58,306 nucleotides of DNA, from assembly GCA_035691845.1 (NCBI GenBank), contig DASSIN010000161.1, forward strand, positions 1-58,306. Reading direction: 5' to 3'. Positions 669 to 43,047 of the stretch are shown one piece after another (the stretch's first letter is position 1; the number at the start of each line of letters is the position of its first letter). The notes under the pieces were generated by a model, which worked only from the letters and a program-made list of their open reading frames with translations, was not told the DNA's origin and did not search any database. Position numbers and translations under genes: made by a program. This DNA comes from Candidatus Eiseniibacteriota bacterium (lineage in GTDB: Bacteria; Eisenbacteria; RBG-16-71-46).

Positions 669-1535
669 GTGGCCAGGCCCCAGGTTCCGTTGCTCGTCTC
701 GAGCGAGTGGCTGGCCGGCCACCTGAACGACCCTGGGCTGCGCATCGCCGACGTGCGCTGGTCGCTGCTCGAGCGCGACAAGGGCCGGAACGCGTACGCC
801 GGCGCGCACATCCCGGGCGCGGTGTTCGTGGACCTGGACACCGAGCTGGCGGCGGCGCCGGGGCAGGGGCCGGGACGGCACCCGCTGCCGGGCGCGGCCG
901 GGTTCGCGGCGGCGATGTCGCGCGCCGGCGTAGGTCCCGACACGCACGTGATCGCGTACGACTTCGGCGACGGCTCGACCGCCGCGCGGCTGTGGTGGCT
1001 GTTGCGCCATTTCGGGCACGAGCGCGTGTCGCTGCTGGACGGCGGGATCGCGCGCTGGCAGGCCGAGGGCCGGCCGCTCGAATCGCGCGTGCCCGAACCC
1101 GCGCCGGGATCGTTCGGCGCGCGGCCCCGCCCGGAGCTGGTGGTGGACGCCGAATTCGTGGAGCGCGCGCGCCACGATCCGCGCACGCTGCTGCTCGACA
1201 CGCGCGCCAGGGAGCGCTACGAGGGCCGGTTGGAGCCGGTGGACCCGGCCGCGGGCCACATCCCGGGCGCGAACAGCCATCCCTACGCCGCCAACGTGCG
1301 CTCGCCCGAGGACCCGCGCTTCCTGCCGCCCGCGGCGCTGCGCGCGCGGTTCGAGTCGCTCGGCGCCGGCCGCGCGCGGCGCATCGTGTGCTATTGCGGC
1401 AGCGGCGTGAACGCGTGCCAGAACGTGTTCGCGCTGGCGCTGGCGGGATTCGAGGACGCGCTGCTGTACGAGGGCTCGTGGAGCGACTGGTGCAGCGTGC
1501 CCACGCACGCGGTGGCCACCGGCCCGCGACCCTGA
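669..1535 (+). CDS. sseA: Two-domain rhodanese / 3-mercaptopyruvate sulfurtransferase
   Basis: LVSSEWL, HIPGAVFVD, GRHPLP, AARLWWLL, LDGG, GHIPGA, active loop CGSGVNAC, YEGSWSDW. GTG at 669 chosen inside ORF 174..1535. Confidence 0.9.
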   Translation: MARPQVPLLVSSEWLAGHLNDPGLRIADVRWSLLERDKGRNAYAGAHIPGAVFVDLDTELAAAPGQGPGRHPLPGAAGFAAAMSRAGVGPDTHVIAYDFGDGSTAARLWWLLRHFGHERVSLLDGGIARWQAEGRPLESRVPEPAPGSFGARPRPELVVDAEFVERARHDPRTLLLDTRARERYEGRLEPVDPAAGHIPGANSHPYAANVRSPEDPRFLPPAALRARFESLGAGRARRIVCYCGSGVNACQNVFALALAGFEDALLYEGSWSDWCSVPTHAVATGPRP

Positions 1536-1602
1536 TCGCGCGCGCACGCGCGAACGGCCCGGGCGTTGGCCCGGGCCGTTCCGTTTCCGGCGCGTGCGGC
1601 GG

Positions 1603-2565
1603 CTACCAGCGCGGCGGCCGCGCGAACCCCACCTGGCCGTGCTCGCGCTCCCACAGCCGGTCGTCGCCGTGGTCGGGGACGATGCCGAGCGCGCGCAGGC
1701 CGGACTCGTACTCGTAGCGCAGCACCAGCCGGTCGGTGGCGTTGCGCTGGGCGTCGAAGTGCGTCTCCGCCACGGGATCGTGCTTCGCCTCGCCCCAGCC
1801 GGTGCCGGGGTAGTTCTGCGCCTCGGGCGCCAGGCCCTGCGCGTCCGGCGCCGCCTTGCGCATGCCGTCGGCCTGCGCGCGCGGCGCGGCCTCGGGCGCC
1901 TCGTTCGAGCGATAGCCGTCGCGCAGCAACGGCTGCCACACCGGCGTCACCTCGGCGAACGTCGTCACGCGGATCCAGCCCATGTCGCCGTTCGCCTGCC
2001 CGCTGCGCTCGGCGTACGAGCGGCTCTCGTCCACGAACCGGAACTGCCGCACCTCGTCCAGCGACGTGCGCCAGCCGCGGATGGTCGCCGTCTCCCACGG
2101 CCCGAGCACGTACATCGGCTCGTTGCGCGAGCCCGACGAGCGCTCGCCGTTCACCACGTTGAGCCCGTCCACCGCCAGCACCACGCCCACGCGGCGGCCG
2201 GTGCGGTTGGTGAGCTGGAGCGCGTACGGACGACCCTGCTCCGCCTCGAAGTACCAGCGCACGCCCGGGCTCCAGAACCGGCCGGCGTCCGCTTTGGGGT
2301 AGAGCGGCGCGCTCTCGCCGCCGACCAGCACCTGCACCGACACCAGCCGGCCGGTGACGGCATCGTCGCTGGGGGACACGGCATCGCGCTCGCGCCAGTC
2401 CTGCGCGTGAGCCGGAACGGCGCACGCCAGCGCGGCGAGCAATGCCAGCGCCGCGATGCGCGGCTGCGGGCGGCGGATCGGCACGGGGACGGGCTCGGGA
2501 GCGCGCGGCGGCTGCGACCAACCGCGCGCGAGCCGGATGTTCGTGGGGTGGACGACGGCGTTCAT
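1603..2565 (-). CDS. Conserved hypothetical secreted protein
   Basis: Strong RBS (GAGGAGG) before ATG; hydrophobic stretch AALALLAALACAVPAHA; conserved-looking core NRTGRRVGVVLAVDGLNVVNG...YVL...IRGWR..LDEVRQFRF...SYAERSG. Confidence 0.75.
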   Translation of the reverse strand: MNAVVHPTNIRLARGWSQPPRAPEPVPVPIRRPQPRIAALALLAALACAVPAHAQDWRERDAVSPSDDAVTGRLVSVQVLVGGESAPLYPKADAGRFWSPGVRWYFEAEQGRPYALQLTNRTGRRVGVVLAVDGLNVVNGERSSGSRNEPMYVLGPWETATIRGWRTSLDEVRQFRFVDESRSYAERSGQANGDMGWIRVTTFAEVTPVWQPLLRDGYRSNEAPEAAPRAQADGMRKAAPDAQGLAPEAQNYPGTGWGEAKHDPVAETHFDAQRNATDRLVLRYEYESGLRALGIVPDHGDDRLWEREHGQVGFARPPRW

Positions 2566-36934: not shown

Positions 36935-38287
36935 TCAGCGCGCGCGCGCCGACCACGTCACGCGATACAGCTCGCCGGTGCCGGCCGGCAGGTGGCGCAC
37001 CACGATCGCGCGCAGGCCGGCGCCCACGCGCCGCGCGACGCCGTCGCTGCGCCCGATGCGATCCACCGCCTGCGCGCGCGCGGCCAGGTCGATCGTGAAC
37101 GACTGCGGCGCCTCGGTGTTCTGGTTGACGACCAGCAGGTAGCGGGTGCGCGCGCGCGCGCTCGCACGCAGCTCGCCCACCATGCACCAGCGGTTGTGCC
37201 CGCGCTCGCCCAGCACCGTGCGGGGCGCGGCCGCGCCACCCGGCAGCTCGTCGCCCACCAGCACCTGCGCCAGCGTGTCCTCGTGCATCACCGCCACCGA
37301 TTCGAGCGCGAGCAGCGTGCGCCCGAGCGCGTGCAGCTCGCGGTTCAGCGCGCGGATCGCGCTGTAGCGGCCGGGCGGCGCGGTGGTGGTGTCGCCCGTC
37401 GCCGACAGCAGGCCGTCGCGGTAGTTGCCGCCCGCGCCGAAATCGACCGGCGACACGGTCCAGTAGAAGATGCCCTTGGCGCCATAGGCGAGCGCCGTAT
37501 AGGCCGCGAATCGGATCTGGCCGAGCGTGGGCGTCGGGTTGGCGGGCGCGCTGGCGTTGCGCGCGAGCTGGATCCACACCCACACCGGCGTACGGCGCGC
37601 GGACGCGGCGTGGCGCGCCACCGCGTCGCGCACCACGCGCAGCGTGAAGTAGAAGTCGTCGCGCGGGACGGGCGGCTCGAACATGTAATGGTCAACGCTC
37701 ACGACCGGCGCCGGCTCGGCGCCGAACCGGGACAGAAACGATTCCACGTAGTCCGGATAGGCGGTCGCCTTGTCGGTGGGGAACGCATAGGCGGGGAACA
37801 GATTCGCGAGCGCGAGCGGCGGACTCGCGCGCGAGCGCGACACGCGCGCGACGCGCTCGGCCGCGAGCGGCGTCTGCGCGGCCGAGGGCTCGTCCCACAC
37901 CCACAGCTCGCGCGACGTGGGATAGCGCAGCAGCGAGTCGAGCACCGCCACGCTGTCCACTCCGTAGCCCAGCATCCGCAGATGAAAGCGCGGGCCCTGG
38001 AGCTTGAGCAGCGTGCGCGCCGCGAGCGCGCGCTCGCGCTGGGAGCCCTCGTAGCCGCCGACGGGCGCGGGGACGACGAGGTCCAGGCCCGCCTGGTCGA
38101 GCCGCCGGAACACGGCCGGGTCGCCGAAGCTGGTCGAGCCGAAGCCGCCGACCATGAACTGCGTCTGCCGCCATGGCGAACCGTGCGCGGCCCCGGCGAT
38201 CGCGGCCAGCAGCAGCGCCGCCGCCAACGGCGCCCCTCCGGGCGTGCGCCGTCTCGTGGCGATCCGTGACGCCCAGCGCTTCGCCAA
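36935..38287 (-). CDS. Secreted glycoside-hydrolase-like TIM-barrel protein (related to 5770..7308, no CTD); start approximate
   Basis: Signal-like LAAALLLAAIAGAAHG; WVWDEP, VSVDHYMF, ALAYGAKGIFYW, C-terminal beta domain ending LPAGTGELYR. Confidence 0.75.
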   Translation of the reverse strand: MAKRWASRIATRRRTPGGAPLAAALLLAAIAGAAHGSPWRQTQFMVGGFGSTSFGDPAVFRRLDQAGLDLVVPAPVGGYEGSQRERALAARTLLKLQGPRFHLRMLGYGVDSVAVLDSLLRYPTSRELWVWDEPSAAQTPLAAERVARVSRSRASPPLALANLFPAYAFPTDKATAYPDYVESFLSRFGAEPAPVVSVDHYMFEPPVPRDDFYFTLRVVRDAVARHAASARRTPVWVWIQLARNASAPANPTPTLGQIRFAAYTALAYGAKGIFYWTVSPVDFGAGGNYRDGLLSATGDTTTAPPGRYSAIRALNRELHALGRTLLALESVAVMHEDTLAQVLVGDELPGGAAAPRTVLGERGHNRWCMVGELRASARARTRYLLVVNQNTEAPQSFTIDLAARAQAVDRIGRSDGVARRVGAGLRAIVVRHLPAGTGELYRVTWSARAR

Positions 38288-38439
38288 TGTTCGCCCCCTC
38301 GCGCTCGCGCGGTCCTCGCGGCGGGCACCGTACCGCAGCGCGCGCCGGCATCGCCATGGTCGCCGCGCGCCGCCCCGCGCTGTTACACTCGTGAGCGCCG
38401 CGGCAGCGGACGCCCCACCCGATCGCGGCTGGAGGAGCC

Positions 38440-38859
38440 ATGCGTCCGCAGCTCGTGCGTTTCAGCCTCGTCCTCTGTGCCCTGGCCGTCGCGTCGTGCA
38501 GCAGCAAGAGCGGCCCCACGTATCCGTCGTCGTCAACGGGCGGCGGGCCGCTGTCCGGCAGCCTCGCCGGCAGCGGCGCCCAGTACGCCCACGCGTTCGC
38601 CACCGCCGGCACGTTCCACTACGCGTGCACGATCCATCCCGCGTGCGCGAGCCTGCAGGGCACGATCGTGGTGGTGGCCCCGGGCACGCCGATCACGAAC
38701 CGCGTGCTCGCGATCTCGATCGACGGCGGCAGCGCCGGGGGTCCGTACGGTGGCGCGACCTGTTCGTCGCTGTCCACGCAGCTCGACACCGTGCAGGTCG
38801 GCGATCAGGTGACGTGGACCAACAACAGCACCCTGCCGCACAACGTGACGAGCCAGTAG
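38440..38859 (+). CDS. Lipoprotein with circularly permuted cupredoxin (plastocyanin/amicyanin-like) domain
   Basis: GGAGG RBS; lipobox VASC (Cys20); YAHAFATAGTFHYACTIHP...GTIVV precedes VQVGDQVTWTNNSTLPHNVTS, the reverse of the normal order. Confidence 0.85.
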   Translation: MRPQLVRFSLVLCALAVASCSSKSGPTYPSSSTGGGPLSGSLAGSGAQYAHAFATAGTFHYACTIHPACASLQGTIVVVAPGTPITNRVLAISIDGGSAGGPYGGATCSSLSTQLDTVQVGDQVTWTNNSTLPHNVTSQ

Positions 38860-38866
38860 CCCCGCG

Positions 38867-39853
38867 CTACTTCGGCCCGCGCCGCAGCGATTCGAGCTGT
38901 GCGCGCGCCTCGGCGTCCGCCGAGTCGAGGGCGGCGGCCCTCGTGTAGGCGGCGATCGCCCTGTCGCGATCGCCGGTGGCCGCGTAGCCCGCGCCCAGCC
39001 CGTCCTGCGCACCGGCCGAACGGGGATGCTCCGACGCGTTCAGCTCGAACACCGCCACCGCCGCGGCCGCGTGTCCACCGCCGATCAGCGCGTGGCCCAG
39101 GTCGTCGAGCAGGTTCTCGTTGACCACCGCCGGCCCGTACTCCGCCGTCAGCCGCCGGTACGCGGCGCGGCCCGAATCGGCACTGCCCGAGTTGAACGCC
39201 AGCGCCATCGCCGCCGCCGCGTGCTGGCGTTTGGCGAACGCCGAGCCCGGGTTCATCTCGACATTGAATGCCAGCAGCCTGACCGCGTCGTCCGGGTGCC
39301 CGTCGGCGCGCACCAAGGTGGCCACGTCCACCAGCGGCACCTCGCCGAAGTCGTAGGTAAAGCGTCCGTAGTAGCGATCCCGCAGCGCGTGGTAGCGGGC
39401 GAGCGTGGTGTCGAGTCCGCCCTCCACGTACGCCGCCGCGAGCACGTCCTGCAGCATGCGCGGCTGCGGCGCGCCGCGATGGCAGGTGGCGCACTGCACG
39501 TGCACGGCCGGGTCGGAGCGGTGCGCGAGGCTCGCCAGGTACTTGTCGTTCAGGTCGCGCGTCATCTGCATCATCACGCGCGCCGTGCGCTTGGGCGGCT
39601 TGTCGTCCCGCGCGAAGTCCTCGTGTCGTGGTCCCGGCCCTTCCTCGATCACGTGGCAATACGCGCACCGCACGCCGAGCGCGCGCGTGAACCCGGACAT
39701 CGTGGCGCGCAGCTCGGCGGGGGAGACGTCCTTCGGCAGCACCTTCAGGTTGGTGAACTTCTCCGGCGGCCGCGCCTGGCCCATTGCCGCGAGCGCCGTC
39801 GCCGCCAGGATCAGCGCCGCCGCCGCGCGGCGAAACCATGCAGATCGGATCAT
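38867..39853 (-). CDS. Dihaem c-type cytochrome (reaction-centre cytochrome c family) fused to TPR-like repeats
   Basis: Signal peptide; NLKVLPKD, ALGVRCAYCH, VQCATCHRG; helical C-terminus with TPR-like pattern (AQDGLGAGYAATGDRDRAIAAYTRA). Confidence 0.88.
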   Translation of the reverse strand: MIRSAWFRRAAAALILAATALAAMGQARPPEKFTNLKVLPKDVSPAELRATMSGFTRALGVRCAYCHVIEEGPGPRHEDFARDDKPPKRTARVMMQMTRDLNDKYLASLAHRSDPAVHVQCATCHRGAPQPRMLQDVLAAAYVEGGLDTTLARYHALRDRYYGRFTYDFGEVPLVDVATLVRADGHPDDAVRLLAFNVEMNPGSAFAKRQHAAAAMALAFNSGSADSGRAAYRRLTAEYGPAVVNENLLDDLGHALIGGGHAAAAVAVFELNASEHPRSAGAQDGLGAGYAATGDRDRAIAAYTRAAALDSADAEARAQLESLRRGPK

Positions 39854-39972
39854 GCGCGCCACGCTGGGGCCACGCGCGCCGCGCCGTCAACGACAATCCG
39901 CCGCGCGCCGGCCGGCCGCGTACGAGCGCCGGCCTTCGCCCCGGGCCGGCCGCTCGTGCGACAGTGCCGCGC

Positions 39973-41301: not shown

Positions 41302-43047
41302 CTAGTCGAGGACCGCCACCCGGATCCCTCGCACTCCCGTGCCCTGGCGCAGTCGAACCAAGTAGATCCCCGGGGCGATGTGCCGGTCTTTCCCGAGTTC
41401 GAGCGTGTAGGTTCCGGGAGCAAATGCATCCAGCGCGCGCGCCCAGATGCGACGTCCGGCGACGTCGAGCAGCTCCAGCGAGCCGGAGCCACCCGGACCG
41501 AGCGAGAACCGCACCGAGATTCGCCCGGAGCGGGCCGGATTCGGACCCGCCAGATCCAGACTCATCGAAGCGTGCGCGTCGGGCCTCACGCCCGCCGTGC
41601 CGCCGCCGAGCCCGCCGGAAGACAAGATGCGCTGGGCGTAGATGTCCGTCGTGCCATTTCGCATGTCCTGCCAGGTGACGATCGCGCCGCCCGAACCGTC
41701 CGTCGTGATCATCGGCAGGTACTGGGTTTCAGCAGCCGTCGAGACGGGCGTTCCTTTGGTCGCCGCGCTCCAGAGCACGGAACCGGCGGAATTGACGCGC
41801 CGCGCGTACACGTCCGCGTTGGCGCCGTCCACCCGGTAGTCGGCCCACGCCACGATTGCCCCGCCCGCGCCGTCGGTCGTCACCACCGGAGACTGCTGCA
41901 TCCCGGCGAAGTCGCAGACCGCCACGCCCGACGCGGCCCACTGCGCCACGCCGGCCGAAGAGATCCGCTGTGCGCGGATGTCTGCCTGGCTGGTGGAGAA
42001 GTGGCTGAAATCCACCCACGCGACGATGGCTCCACCCGCTCCGTCCGCGACGATCGAAGGAAGCGTTTCGCCGGCAGCATCCGACATGGGCACGCCGTCG
42101 GCGGCCCACTGGACGCTGCCGGTGGACGAGATCCTCTGTGCGTAGATCTTCTCCGCCGAGCGCAGGTCGTCCCAGGCGACGATGGCCCCACCCGATCCGT
42201 CCGCGGCGATCGCCGCGCTGGTCTGATCGTTCGCCGCGTTGCAGAGCGCGACGCCGTTGGTCGTCCATAGCCGGTTGCCGCCGGCGTCGACGCGCTGCGC
42301 GTAGATGTCGCGGTTCGAACTCCCATTGCGGGCATCCGCCCACGTGATGATCCCGCCACCGACGCCGTCGGGAACGATCATCGGGTACTGCTGGCTTCCA
42401 GCGGCGACGCAGATCGGCACACCGTCGGCCTCCCAGATGGGATTGCCCAGGGCCGTGACCCGCCGGGCGTAGATGTCTCCGATCACCTGAGTGGGATCGT
42501 CGCGTCGATCCCACCACGTGATGATCGCGCCACCCGCCCCGTCCGAAATCACGGCCTCGTCGTGCTGGGGCCCGGGGGCGGTGCACACCGGCACGCCGTT
42601 CGGGTCCCAGAGGAGCTCGCCGTTGGCCGAAAGGTGCTGGCAGTAGATGTCGGAGAGCCCCGCGCGCGAATCGTTCCAGGTGACGATCGCGCCTCCCGAG
42701 CCGTCGCTCGTGATGTGGGGAACCAGTTGATCGCCCGTCCCCGTGCAGATCGGGATTCCGTCCGGGCCCCACTGCGCGACGCCGTCGGCCGAGACGCGCT
42801 GGGCGAAGATCTGGTAGTTGGATTCGTTCCGGTAGTCCTGCCAGACGATGAACGCCCCGCCCGTTCCGTCGGGGAGGATCGCGGGGAACTCCTGGTCGAA
42901 GTCCGCGGTGCACACGCCCAGGTTGACCGTGGGATCGCTTGGCCAGGCCGCGACCGCTGGGGAGGGAGCCGCGATGCAGGCGAGCACGGCGGCCAGCCCG
43001 ATCCAACGCCGCGGCGCCATCGTTCGGATGTGTGGGTGATCTCGCAT
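41302..43047 (-). CDS. Secreted repeat (probable 8-bladed beta-propeller) protein with short T9SS-like CTD
   Basis: Signal peptide; eight ~55-aa repeats DGxGGAIVxWxDxR...DIYAQRV...G...W; CTD GPNPARS...LLDVAGRR...PGIYLVRL; GGAAGGAG RBS. Confidence 0.88.
   Translation of the reverse strand: MRDHPHIRTMAPRRWIGLAAVLACIAAPSPAVAAWPSDPTVNLGVCTADFDQEFPAILPDGTGGAFIVWQDYRNESNYQIFAQRVSADGVAQWGPDGIPICTGTGDQLVPHITSDGSGGAIVTWNDSRAGLSDIYCQHLSANGELLWDPNGVPVCTAPGPQHDEAVISDGAGGAIITWWDRRDDPTQVIGDIYARRVTALGNPIWEADGVPICVAAGSQQYPMIVPDGVGGGIITWADARNGSSNRDIYAQRVDAGGNRLWTTNGVALCNAANDQTSAAIAADGSGGAIVAWDDLRSAEKIYAQRISSTGSVQWAADGVPMSDAAGETLPSIVADGAGGAIVAWVDFSHFSTSQADIRAQRISSAGVAQWAASGVAVCDFAGMQQSPVVTTDGAGGAIVAWADYRVDGANADVYARRVNSAGSVLWSAATKGTPVSTAAETQYLPMITTDGSGGAIVTWQDMRNGTTDIYAQRILSSGGLGGGTAGVRPDAHASMSLDLAGPNPARSGRISVRFSLGPGGSGSLELLDVAGRRIWARALDAFAPGTYTLELGKDRHIAPGIYLVRLRQGTGVRGIRVAVLD

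Follow-up and report, generated by a model that had tools for sequence, protein, structure and literature searches.

The gene considered here occupies positions 38440 to 38859 of the window (the whole stretch of DNA analysed, 58,306 nucleotides), and its product, P0001, is a lipoprotein that carries the two halves of a cupredoxin in exchanged order. The initial annotation had quoted, besides the reading frame itself, residues Y61, C63, H66, C69, L72, C108 and H134 and a stop after Q139, and all of these proved correct when the sequence was read again. The parts of the gene and its neighbors are as follows (coordinates, strand, description, with the basis in parentheses).

38431..38435, +, Shine-Dalgarno-like GGAGG, 4 nt 5' of the ATG (read from the sequence)
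38440..38859, +, whole open reading frame, stop included, of the 139-amino-acid permuted cupredoxin lipoprotein P0001 (81 members of the same architecture)
38440..38499, +, signal peptide and lipobox V-A-S-C, with Cys20 invariant (alignments; fits [LVI][ASTVI][GAS]C)
38500..38547, +, flexible Ser/Gly/Pro tether, residues 21-36, from lipid anchor to domain (low pLDDT; length and sequence vary in the family)
38548..38676, +, first half, residues 37-79, homologue of the canonical C-terminal half (PF00127 62-98; amicyanin 63-103)
38626..38655, +, putative copper ligand loop C63-T-I-H66-P-A-C69-A-S-L72 (C63 and H66 invariant in 81 of 81)
38677..38703, +, join A80-PGTPITN-R88, between the former C-terminal (last) strand and the former N-terminal (first) strand (aligned with the linker between the two domains of P0115)
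38704..38856, +, second half, residues 89-139, homologue of the canonical N-terminal half (amicyanin profile 14-34 against 117-137; amicyanin 37-55 against 119-137)
38761..38763, +, codon of Cys108, proposed to form a disulfide with Cys69 (always found together with C69 and L72)
38839..38841, +, codon of His134, the putative upstream His ligand of the copper, which has come to lie close to the C-terminus (present in all 81 members; aligns with amicyanin His53)
36935-38287, -, 450-amino-acid protein with signal peptide, divergent and upstream (sub-threshold GH42, beta-galactosidase; no NCBIfam match)
38867-39862, -, secreted c-type cytochrome of 331 amino acids with two CxxCH and C-terminal TPR repeats (NF033196, E 5.5e-31)
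41302-43047, -, secreted protein of 581 amino acids with about 12 repeats of about 35-40 amino acids, motif DG.GGAI[IV][TA]W.D.R (sequence)

The protein begins with a lipoprotein signal, MRPQLVRFSLVLCALAVAS-C20, which agrees with the lipobox pattern given above. Its first half contains the strands that, in canonical order, run from after the first His to the last strand, and its second half stops 5 residues past the His ligand H134. Cys108 is in the loop between strands one and two of what was the N-terminal half.

The gene for P0001 is a stand-alone one, and 7 nt separate its stop from that of the convergent cytochrome gene. Scans for sigma-70 promoters and intrinsic terminators around it found nothing. 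The repeat protein at 41302-43047 has what looks like a T9SS-type sorting domain in its C-terminal part, and Pfam gave it only a weak match to the Lipoprotein_15 repeat.

Order of the two halves and the family that shares it

In canonical cupredoxins the His block comes before the block with the Cys-His-Met loop. The initial annotation claimed that P0001 is a circular permutant of this arrangement, and it expected each half, when searched separately, to find its counterpart in swapped order. That is what the profiles return. Pfam PF00127 (Copper-bind) matches P0001 with 31.3 bits (E 2.8e-07), above its curated cut-off of 21.2 bits, but in two stretches, the better of which pairs residues 41-78 of the protein with positions 62-98 of the 99 in the profile. 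At the other end, positions 14-34 of the 83 in the NCBIfam amicyanin profile pair with residues 117-137. A profile of the family, compared with all PDB sequences, finds amicyanin (E 3.5e-11) in two pieces and in reversed order: amicyanin 37-55 corresponds to query 119-137 and amicyanin 63-103 to query 37-80.

If residues 84-139 and 34-83 are re-joined in silico in that order, the match becomes single and collinear, over positions 20-98 of the 99 in PF00127 and residues 36-98 of amicyanin. Only the re-joined sequence behaves in this way; in the HMM alignments the natural one is reversed. The family-profile search of the PDB found no chain collinear with the natural sequence over both halves except tandem-domain nitrite reductases, and these match the natural order across a domain boundary. 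Complementary halves of a cupredoxin profile are thus found swapped, un-permuting the sequence makes it collinear, and AF2 folds the natural chain as one compact domain (pTM 0.86). These comparisons confirm the swapped order and support the reading of P0001 as a natural, circularly permuted cupredoxin.

A first homology search gave 23 relatives of 120-167 amino acids with the same order of halves, and in their alignment C20, Y61, C63, H66, C69, L72, C108 and H134 are invariant. The family was then widened by a profile search of 1.84 billion representatives and by a further search, word-indexed, that started from a broader alignment. All 81 proteins that were aligned, each from an independent contig, have a lipobox, then the Cys/His loop, and the His block last. 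C63, H66 and H134, which align with amicyanin Cys92, His95 and His53, are invariant in every one.

The chain was said to be cut just after HNVTS, and the cut is a property of the family: all 81 proteins stop 4-6 residues past the His, ending in ...H-[TNS]-V-[TV]-S-x. Because start, order and end are common to 81 proteins from independent contigs, P0001 is not an artefact, and both chance and a mis-assembly within the reading frame are excluded.

Sequence identity in the family is 30-75%, and its members come from many samples. The survey of homologues, which had been suggested together with one for tandem-domain ancestors, thus produced a family of at least 80 members from uncultured soil bacteria, as well as the candidates for ancestry that are taken up below. 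Those members that could be placed are mostly from Candidatus Eisenbacteria; three relatives are in named genomes, two of them Candidatus Eisenbacteria MAGs and one a MAG labelled Verrucomicrobiia. Across the phylum of the window, full-length collinear profile matches occur in 28 of 151 genomes and 16 of 72 genera. The source labels on the family proteins are 'plastocyanin' or 'hypothetical protein', and no dedicated Pfam or NCBIfam model for the permuted family matched P0001.

The family has two subfamilies. In 49 of the 81 proteins the loop is canonical, C-x2-H-x2/3-M-x-G, and the mature domain contains no other Cys. The remaining 32, P0001 among them, have C-x2-H-x2-C-x2-L-x-G and in addition a Cys at position 108. 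The covariation is perfect and three-way: Cys69, Leu72 and Cys108 are jointly present (n=32) or jointly absent, with Met (n=49).

The genome that contains P0001 encodes two further permuted paralogues and several canonical cupredoxins. One paralogue, at G000:C272:36823-37173 (+) (L008/L023), is a permuted cupredoxin lipoprotein of the Met type, with the loop CIHHAPM and without the extra Cys. The third permuted protein, at G000:C86:~1090-1782 (+) (L010/L024), has a lipobox followed by an extra beta-rich domain of about 90 amino acids that ends ...YTFNSVTANHTIAATF. The Cys/His/Met half (CQLHPTLM) follows, and after it the His half. The tail at the end of the protein, ...GTAMKMPHM, is rich in Met and His and recalls tails that bind Cu(I).

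As to whether such proteins had been seen before, the initial annotation knew of no described natural permuted cupredoxin, and the full-text literature searched yielded none either; what matched there were engineered permutants of unrelated proteins or passing mentions, and one cupredoxin paper (PMC4532836) mentions circular permutation for GFP only. I could not find the swapped arrangement described for natural cupredoxins, and, as judged from that literature, it is apparently new.

Origin of the swapped order

A permutant that arose by duplication should be collinear with the middle of a tandem duplicate. Residues 31-139 of P0001 are collinear with residues 69-157 of the two-domain lipoprotein P0115 (33% identity), and residues 45-128 of the Met-type paralogue align with 76-157 of the same protein with 45% identity and only 4 gap positions. 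Against the canonical single-domain lipoprotein P0247, both P0001 and the Met-type paralogue align instead in two segments, in swapped order. Collinearity with the middle of a tandem protein, combined with swapped segments against a single domain, is the signature of duplication followed by loss of both ends.

The same pattern recurs on a larger scale. Many of the best matches in the representative library are tandem cupredoxins of 300-1450 amino acids, with up to 14 matched stretches, and query residues 35-139 are matched in one stretch by many of the long ones. In these tandem proteins a His block comes first and a Cys-His-Met block last, which means that each of their domains is canonical. 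Two-domain cupredoxins are present in several genomes of P0001's own phylum. The initial annotation had taken the old termini to be joined by about nine residues, and the join does align with the inter-domain linker of a tandem cupredoxin. Most likely, to judge from these alignments, the permuted gene descends from one with two cupredoxin domains in tandem, in which domain 1 lost its first half and domain 2 its second.

The longest of the tandem proteins deserve mention in their own right. P0025, P0028, P0032, P0040 and P0066, all from metagenomes, are poly-cupredoxins of 1000-1450 amino acids with 9-14 matched stretches. The sequence of P0025, the one of the five inspected, consists of about ten tandem type-1 domains with Pro-rich linkers and a C-terminal membrane anchor. 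These proteins look like extracellular or periplasmic 'copper wires'.

A maximum-likelihood tree of the un-permuted sequences, with the limited resolution that only 90 columns provide, puts all permuted proteins and P0247 on one side of a branch (95% SH-aLRT). Within that side the Cys/Leu subfamily forms a clade of its own (99% support) at the end of a long stem, which makes it the derived one; the Met-type permuted subfamily appears to be the ancestral state of the permuted family.

In this tree the permuted clade is joined by P0247 (metagenome, 122 amino acids), a lipoprotein cupredoxin of canonical order. Each of its halves is 53-64% identical to the corresponding half of the Met-type permutants, with ELNSGDI...GG.Y.H.F and WTNNSG..HTVTSN in common, and it is a candidate for the closest non-permuted relative. 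The tether of the own-genome Met-type paralogue reads ...NNYVTSPAPQLELNSG and aligns with ...HTVTSNSPSTELNSG of P0247. This segment of the tether, NNYVTSPAPQLELNSG, may be a vestige of the strand that follows the His ligand, kept at both ends.

The proposed copper site, the predicted fold and the probable role of the protein

I propose that P0001 is a lipid-anchored, periplasm-facing, permuted type-1 copper carrier, derived from a tandem cupredoxin, with Leu72 in the axial position, a disulfide between C69 and C108, and a raised potential. From the lipobox Cys the chain would pass through a flexible tether into the strands that are normally last, including the Cys63/His66 loop, then through the 9-residue join into the strands that are normally first, and it would end 5 residues past His134, so that the three equatorial ligands would meet as they do in amicyanin. 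In the derived subfamily Leu72 would have replaced the axial Met, and a 3-residue insertion would carry Cys69. The disulfide to Cys108 would staple the ligand loop to a neighboring loop beside the exposed edge of His66. The site would be three-coordinate and of raised potential, by analogy with type-1 sites whose axial residue is Leu or Phe. I consider this whole reading probable. The permuted order in it is read from the alignments; that the protein binds copper, forms the disulfide, has a high potential and carries electrons to or from a partner is what I infer.

The equatorial set of a type-1 site, the upstream His, the Cys and the loop His, is present and conserved in the family of P0001. 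The axial Met (or Gln) is absent from P0001: Leu72 fills the Met column, and the sister subfamily keeps Met. The initial annotation had put Leu72 in the axial position, which stands as likely: in MAFFT and HMMER alignments the Met of the sister subfamily, like that of amicyanin, falls on L72, and C69-x-x is treated as an insertion. The assignment rests mainly on the register of G-x-[IV]-x-V and is alignment-dependent, since a pairwise phmmer alignment to amicyanin sets C69 on Met98 instead. Leu is a natural axial variant in high-potential type-1 sites, so its presence does not exclude a site of this type.

A site of the CuA type or the Cys-x-x-Cys type was also considered, and rejected. The motifs do not fit (the CuA motif is H...C-x-E-x-C-x3-H-x2-M, and the P0001 loop, C-x2-H-x2-C-x2-L, differs from it in both spacing and order), and the only matches were weak ones of the PF00127 type.

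What do the two extra cysteines do? The initial annotation offered a disulfide as one possibility and a second thiolate as the other. The joint presence of C69 and C108 with L72 in 32 proteins and their joint absence with Met in 49 mark them as a coupled pair, of which a disulfide is the simplest, if unproven, interpretation. In an ungapped hand alignment to poplar plastocyanin, C108 falls on Ser11 and C69 on Ala90. Plastocyanin residues 10-12, like residues 89-90, presumably border the hydrophobic patch at the exposed His. Both cysteines would then lie at the patch that flanks the His, and a disulfide between them would be geometrically plausible. In some phytocyanins a ligand-loop disulfide adjoins an axial ligand that is not Met. 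The pattern of covariation favours a C69-C108 disulfide at the ligand loop, with Leu as the axial residue.

An alternative view is that Cys69 and Cys108 do not form a structural disulfide but belong to the metal site or act as a redox switch: C69 might be an axial thiolate in a bis-thiolate site, the pair might bind a second Cu(I), or it might open and close reversibly and so gate copper binding or potential. C69 does stand at His+3, where amicyanin has its Met and where the pairwise alignment places it; the Met of the sister subfamily comes two residues after the C-x2-H-x2 spacing. Loss of Met moreover always coincides with gain of the two cysteines, which could compensate for the lost ligand. 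Against this, the profile and MAFFT alignments agree in placing Met on L72, with C-x-x as the insertion, and L72 is invariant in the subfamily, as expected of a residue that fills the axial pocket. For two invariant cysteines in an exported protein a disulfide is the simplest explanation, and the phytocyanins supply a precedent for one beside a non-Met axial ligand. I therefore regard a metal-binding or switching role of the cysteines as unlikely. There is a slightly smaller chance that the Cys69/Cys108/Leu72 subfamily has no classical blue-copper site at all, and that the missing axial Met and the two invariant thiols at the mouth of the site give a new kind of copper centre on the permuted scaffold. 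Such a centre might be mononuclear with an axial thiolate or bis-thiolate, or it might be one in which the state of the C69-C108 disulfide switches potential or occupancy by metal.

The proposed type-1 site requires that His134, Cys63 and His66 come together within one chain, and here the predicted structures bear on the matter. An AF2 model of the full length, from an alignment of 24 sequences, has pLDDT 76 and pTM 0.65, with 85-93 in the blocks of the domain and less than 50 at residues 12-34, where the signal and tether are disordered. For residues 36-139, from 81 sequences, pLDDT rises to 94.9 and pTM to 0.86, and no residue is below 70. Nine strands are predicted (39-42, 48-52, 57-62, 73-79, 91-98, 107-111, 115-119, 123-128 and 134-138), and each of them coincides with a part of the sequence that is aligned to an amicyanin strand region. 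A pTM of 0.86 means that the two halves are packed in a fixed mutual arrangement: the mature domain is predicted to fold as a single compact body. The cupredoxin fold, and a meeting of H134, C63 and H66 within it, would be expected. Foldseek comparison of both models with the PDB gave E >= 0.3, rmsd of 10-17 A and no cupredoxin; I attribute this to the use of a sequential aligner on a permuted chain, and it speaks neither for the fold nor against it.

It might nonetheless be imagined that no permuted monomer exists, and that the halves swap between chains to rebuild canonical domains in a head-to-tail dimer or polymer. P0001 is, after all, collinear with the middle of a tandem protein, where the two halves belong to different domains, and the join is short (6-9 residues in the family). 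AF2, however, folds the single chain as one rigid body, with pLDDT of about 94-96 across the join A80-R88. In plastocyanin structures the southern end of the sandwich is where the first strand of a cupredoxin begins and where the last one finishes, and 6-9 residues should therefore be enough to connect them. Exchange of halves between chains is very improbable.

Returning to the permuted monomer, its function is likely to be that of a lipid-anchored periplasmic type-1 copper protein that carries one electron at a time. By analogy, the Leu/disulfide version is predicted to be higher in potential than the Met version. The convergent c-type cytochrome, which matches the NCBIfam model NF033196 ('c_type_nonphoto') and has a PufC-like haem domain, is a possible redox partner close at hand. 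Possible electron acceptors are the products of two haem-copper oxidase subunit II genes in the genome.

No conserved neighborhood was found: three homologue loci with long flanks have unrelated neighbors, and by tblastn four window neighbors of the gene, the convergent cytochrome c included, are absent from all other loci, many of which have a flank of only about 1.5 kb. It could be argued from this lack of conserved respiratory neighbors, and from the stand-alone, monocistronic genes, that the fold has been kept for another role, that of a periplasmic lipoprotein that binds or traffics copper, or of a copper sensor. The tail of the third paralogue in the genome, ...AMKMPHM, is typical of proteins that handle Cu(I). 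But the invariant His-Cys-His(-Met) of the sister subfamily is the canonical type-1 site of electron transfer, and trafficking proteins generally use Met/His or Cys-x-x-Cys sites. A copper-handling role without redox function seems more improbable still.

That the reading frame is a non-functional remnant of a tandem gene, or a chimeric join, is suggested by its exact resemblance to an internal piece of such a gene, and is effectively refuted by family-wide conservation: 81 proteins on independent contigs, 30-75% identical, that have lipoprotein signals of their own and do not vary in their ligands or in where they end, full-length profile matches in 28 of 151 genomes and 16 of 72 genera of the phylum, and a good ribosome-binding site before the frame.

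Significance and comparison with known systems

Cupredoxins are a textbook fold of electron transfer and one of the main models of metal-site tuning by a protein scaffold. In canonical members the ligands are about 50 residues apart, with the first His before the Cys; in P0001 this order is reversed. A natural and conserved permutant would show that a blue-copper site withstands a complete change in the path of the chain. It is also a clean natural case of permutation by duplication and truncation, since one phylum still has the tandem precursors, the canonical sister and both permuted subfamilies. The occurrence on the same scaffold of Met, or else of Leu with a pair of cysteines at the ligand loop, is a natural experiment for the tuning of potential, for folding and for protein design. 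Current annotation, by way of partial Pfam matches or the labels 'plastocyanin' and 'hypothetical protein', misses the permuted proteins as complete domains. They are not a new kind of system, and their interest, robust at the level of the observation, is for specialists in protein evolution and bioinorganic chemistry.

The nearest well-known proteins are those of the amicyanin/plastocyanin type (PF00127; PDB 1AAC, 1PLC). Both halves of P0001 are homologous to theirs, and the His...Cys-x2-His triad is common to all, as are the motifs VGD.VTW.N...H and G.Y.Y.C..H...G.[IV].V, the length of about 100 residues and, by prediction for P0001, the all-beta structure. P0001 differs from them in that its halves are swapped, its axial Met is replaced, probably, by Leu, and it is lipid-anchored. 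Its ligand loop is 3 residues longer than that of amicyanin and contains an extra Cys that would be paired with the Cys of a neighboring loop.

Closer to P0001 are the Met-type sisters (G000:C272:36823-37173, P0173, P0185 and P0193), which share its lipobox, its swapped order, an ...H-T-V-T-S end and its clade in the tree. They differ in having the canonical C-x2-H-x2/3-M loop and in lacking Cys69 and Cys108, and in their second half a shorter loop joins strands one and two. In tandem cupredoxins (P0115 with two domains, P0025 with about ten), the second half of one domain, the linker and the first half of the next resemble P0001 at 33-45% identity, but these proteins begin with a first half, end with a second half and have Met as axial ligands.

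The features of the site have parallels further afield. In the phytocyanins (stellacyanin, cucumber basic protein) a Cys just after the second His of the loop is disulfide-linked elsewhere in the domain, and stellacyanin has Gln as its axial ligand. These are plant proteins of canonical strand order, the disulfide partner is in a different place from that proposed here, and they are not detectably closer to P0001 in sequence. A non-coordinating axial Leu or Phe is found in fungal laccases, in one site of ceruloplasmin, and in azurin M121L and rusticyanin M148L. Leu at the Met position gives a trigonal His2Cys site with a raised reduction potential. The natural cases of axial Leu or Phe are domains of multicopper oxidases, un-permuted, unlike the single-domain P0001.

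In its attachment P0001 resembles Laz of Neisseria and the auracyanins, membrane-tethered electron carriers in which an N-terminal lipobox and a flexible tether lead into a cupredoxin domain. In those proteins the tether enters the canonical N-terminal strand, whereas in P0001 it enters the segment that normally comes after the first His ligand.
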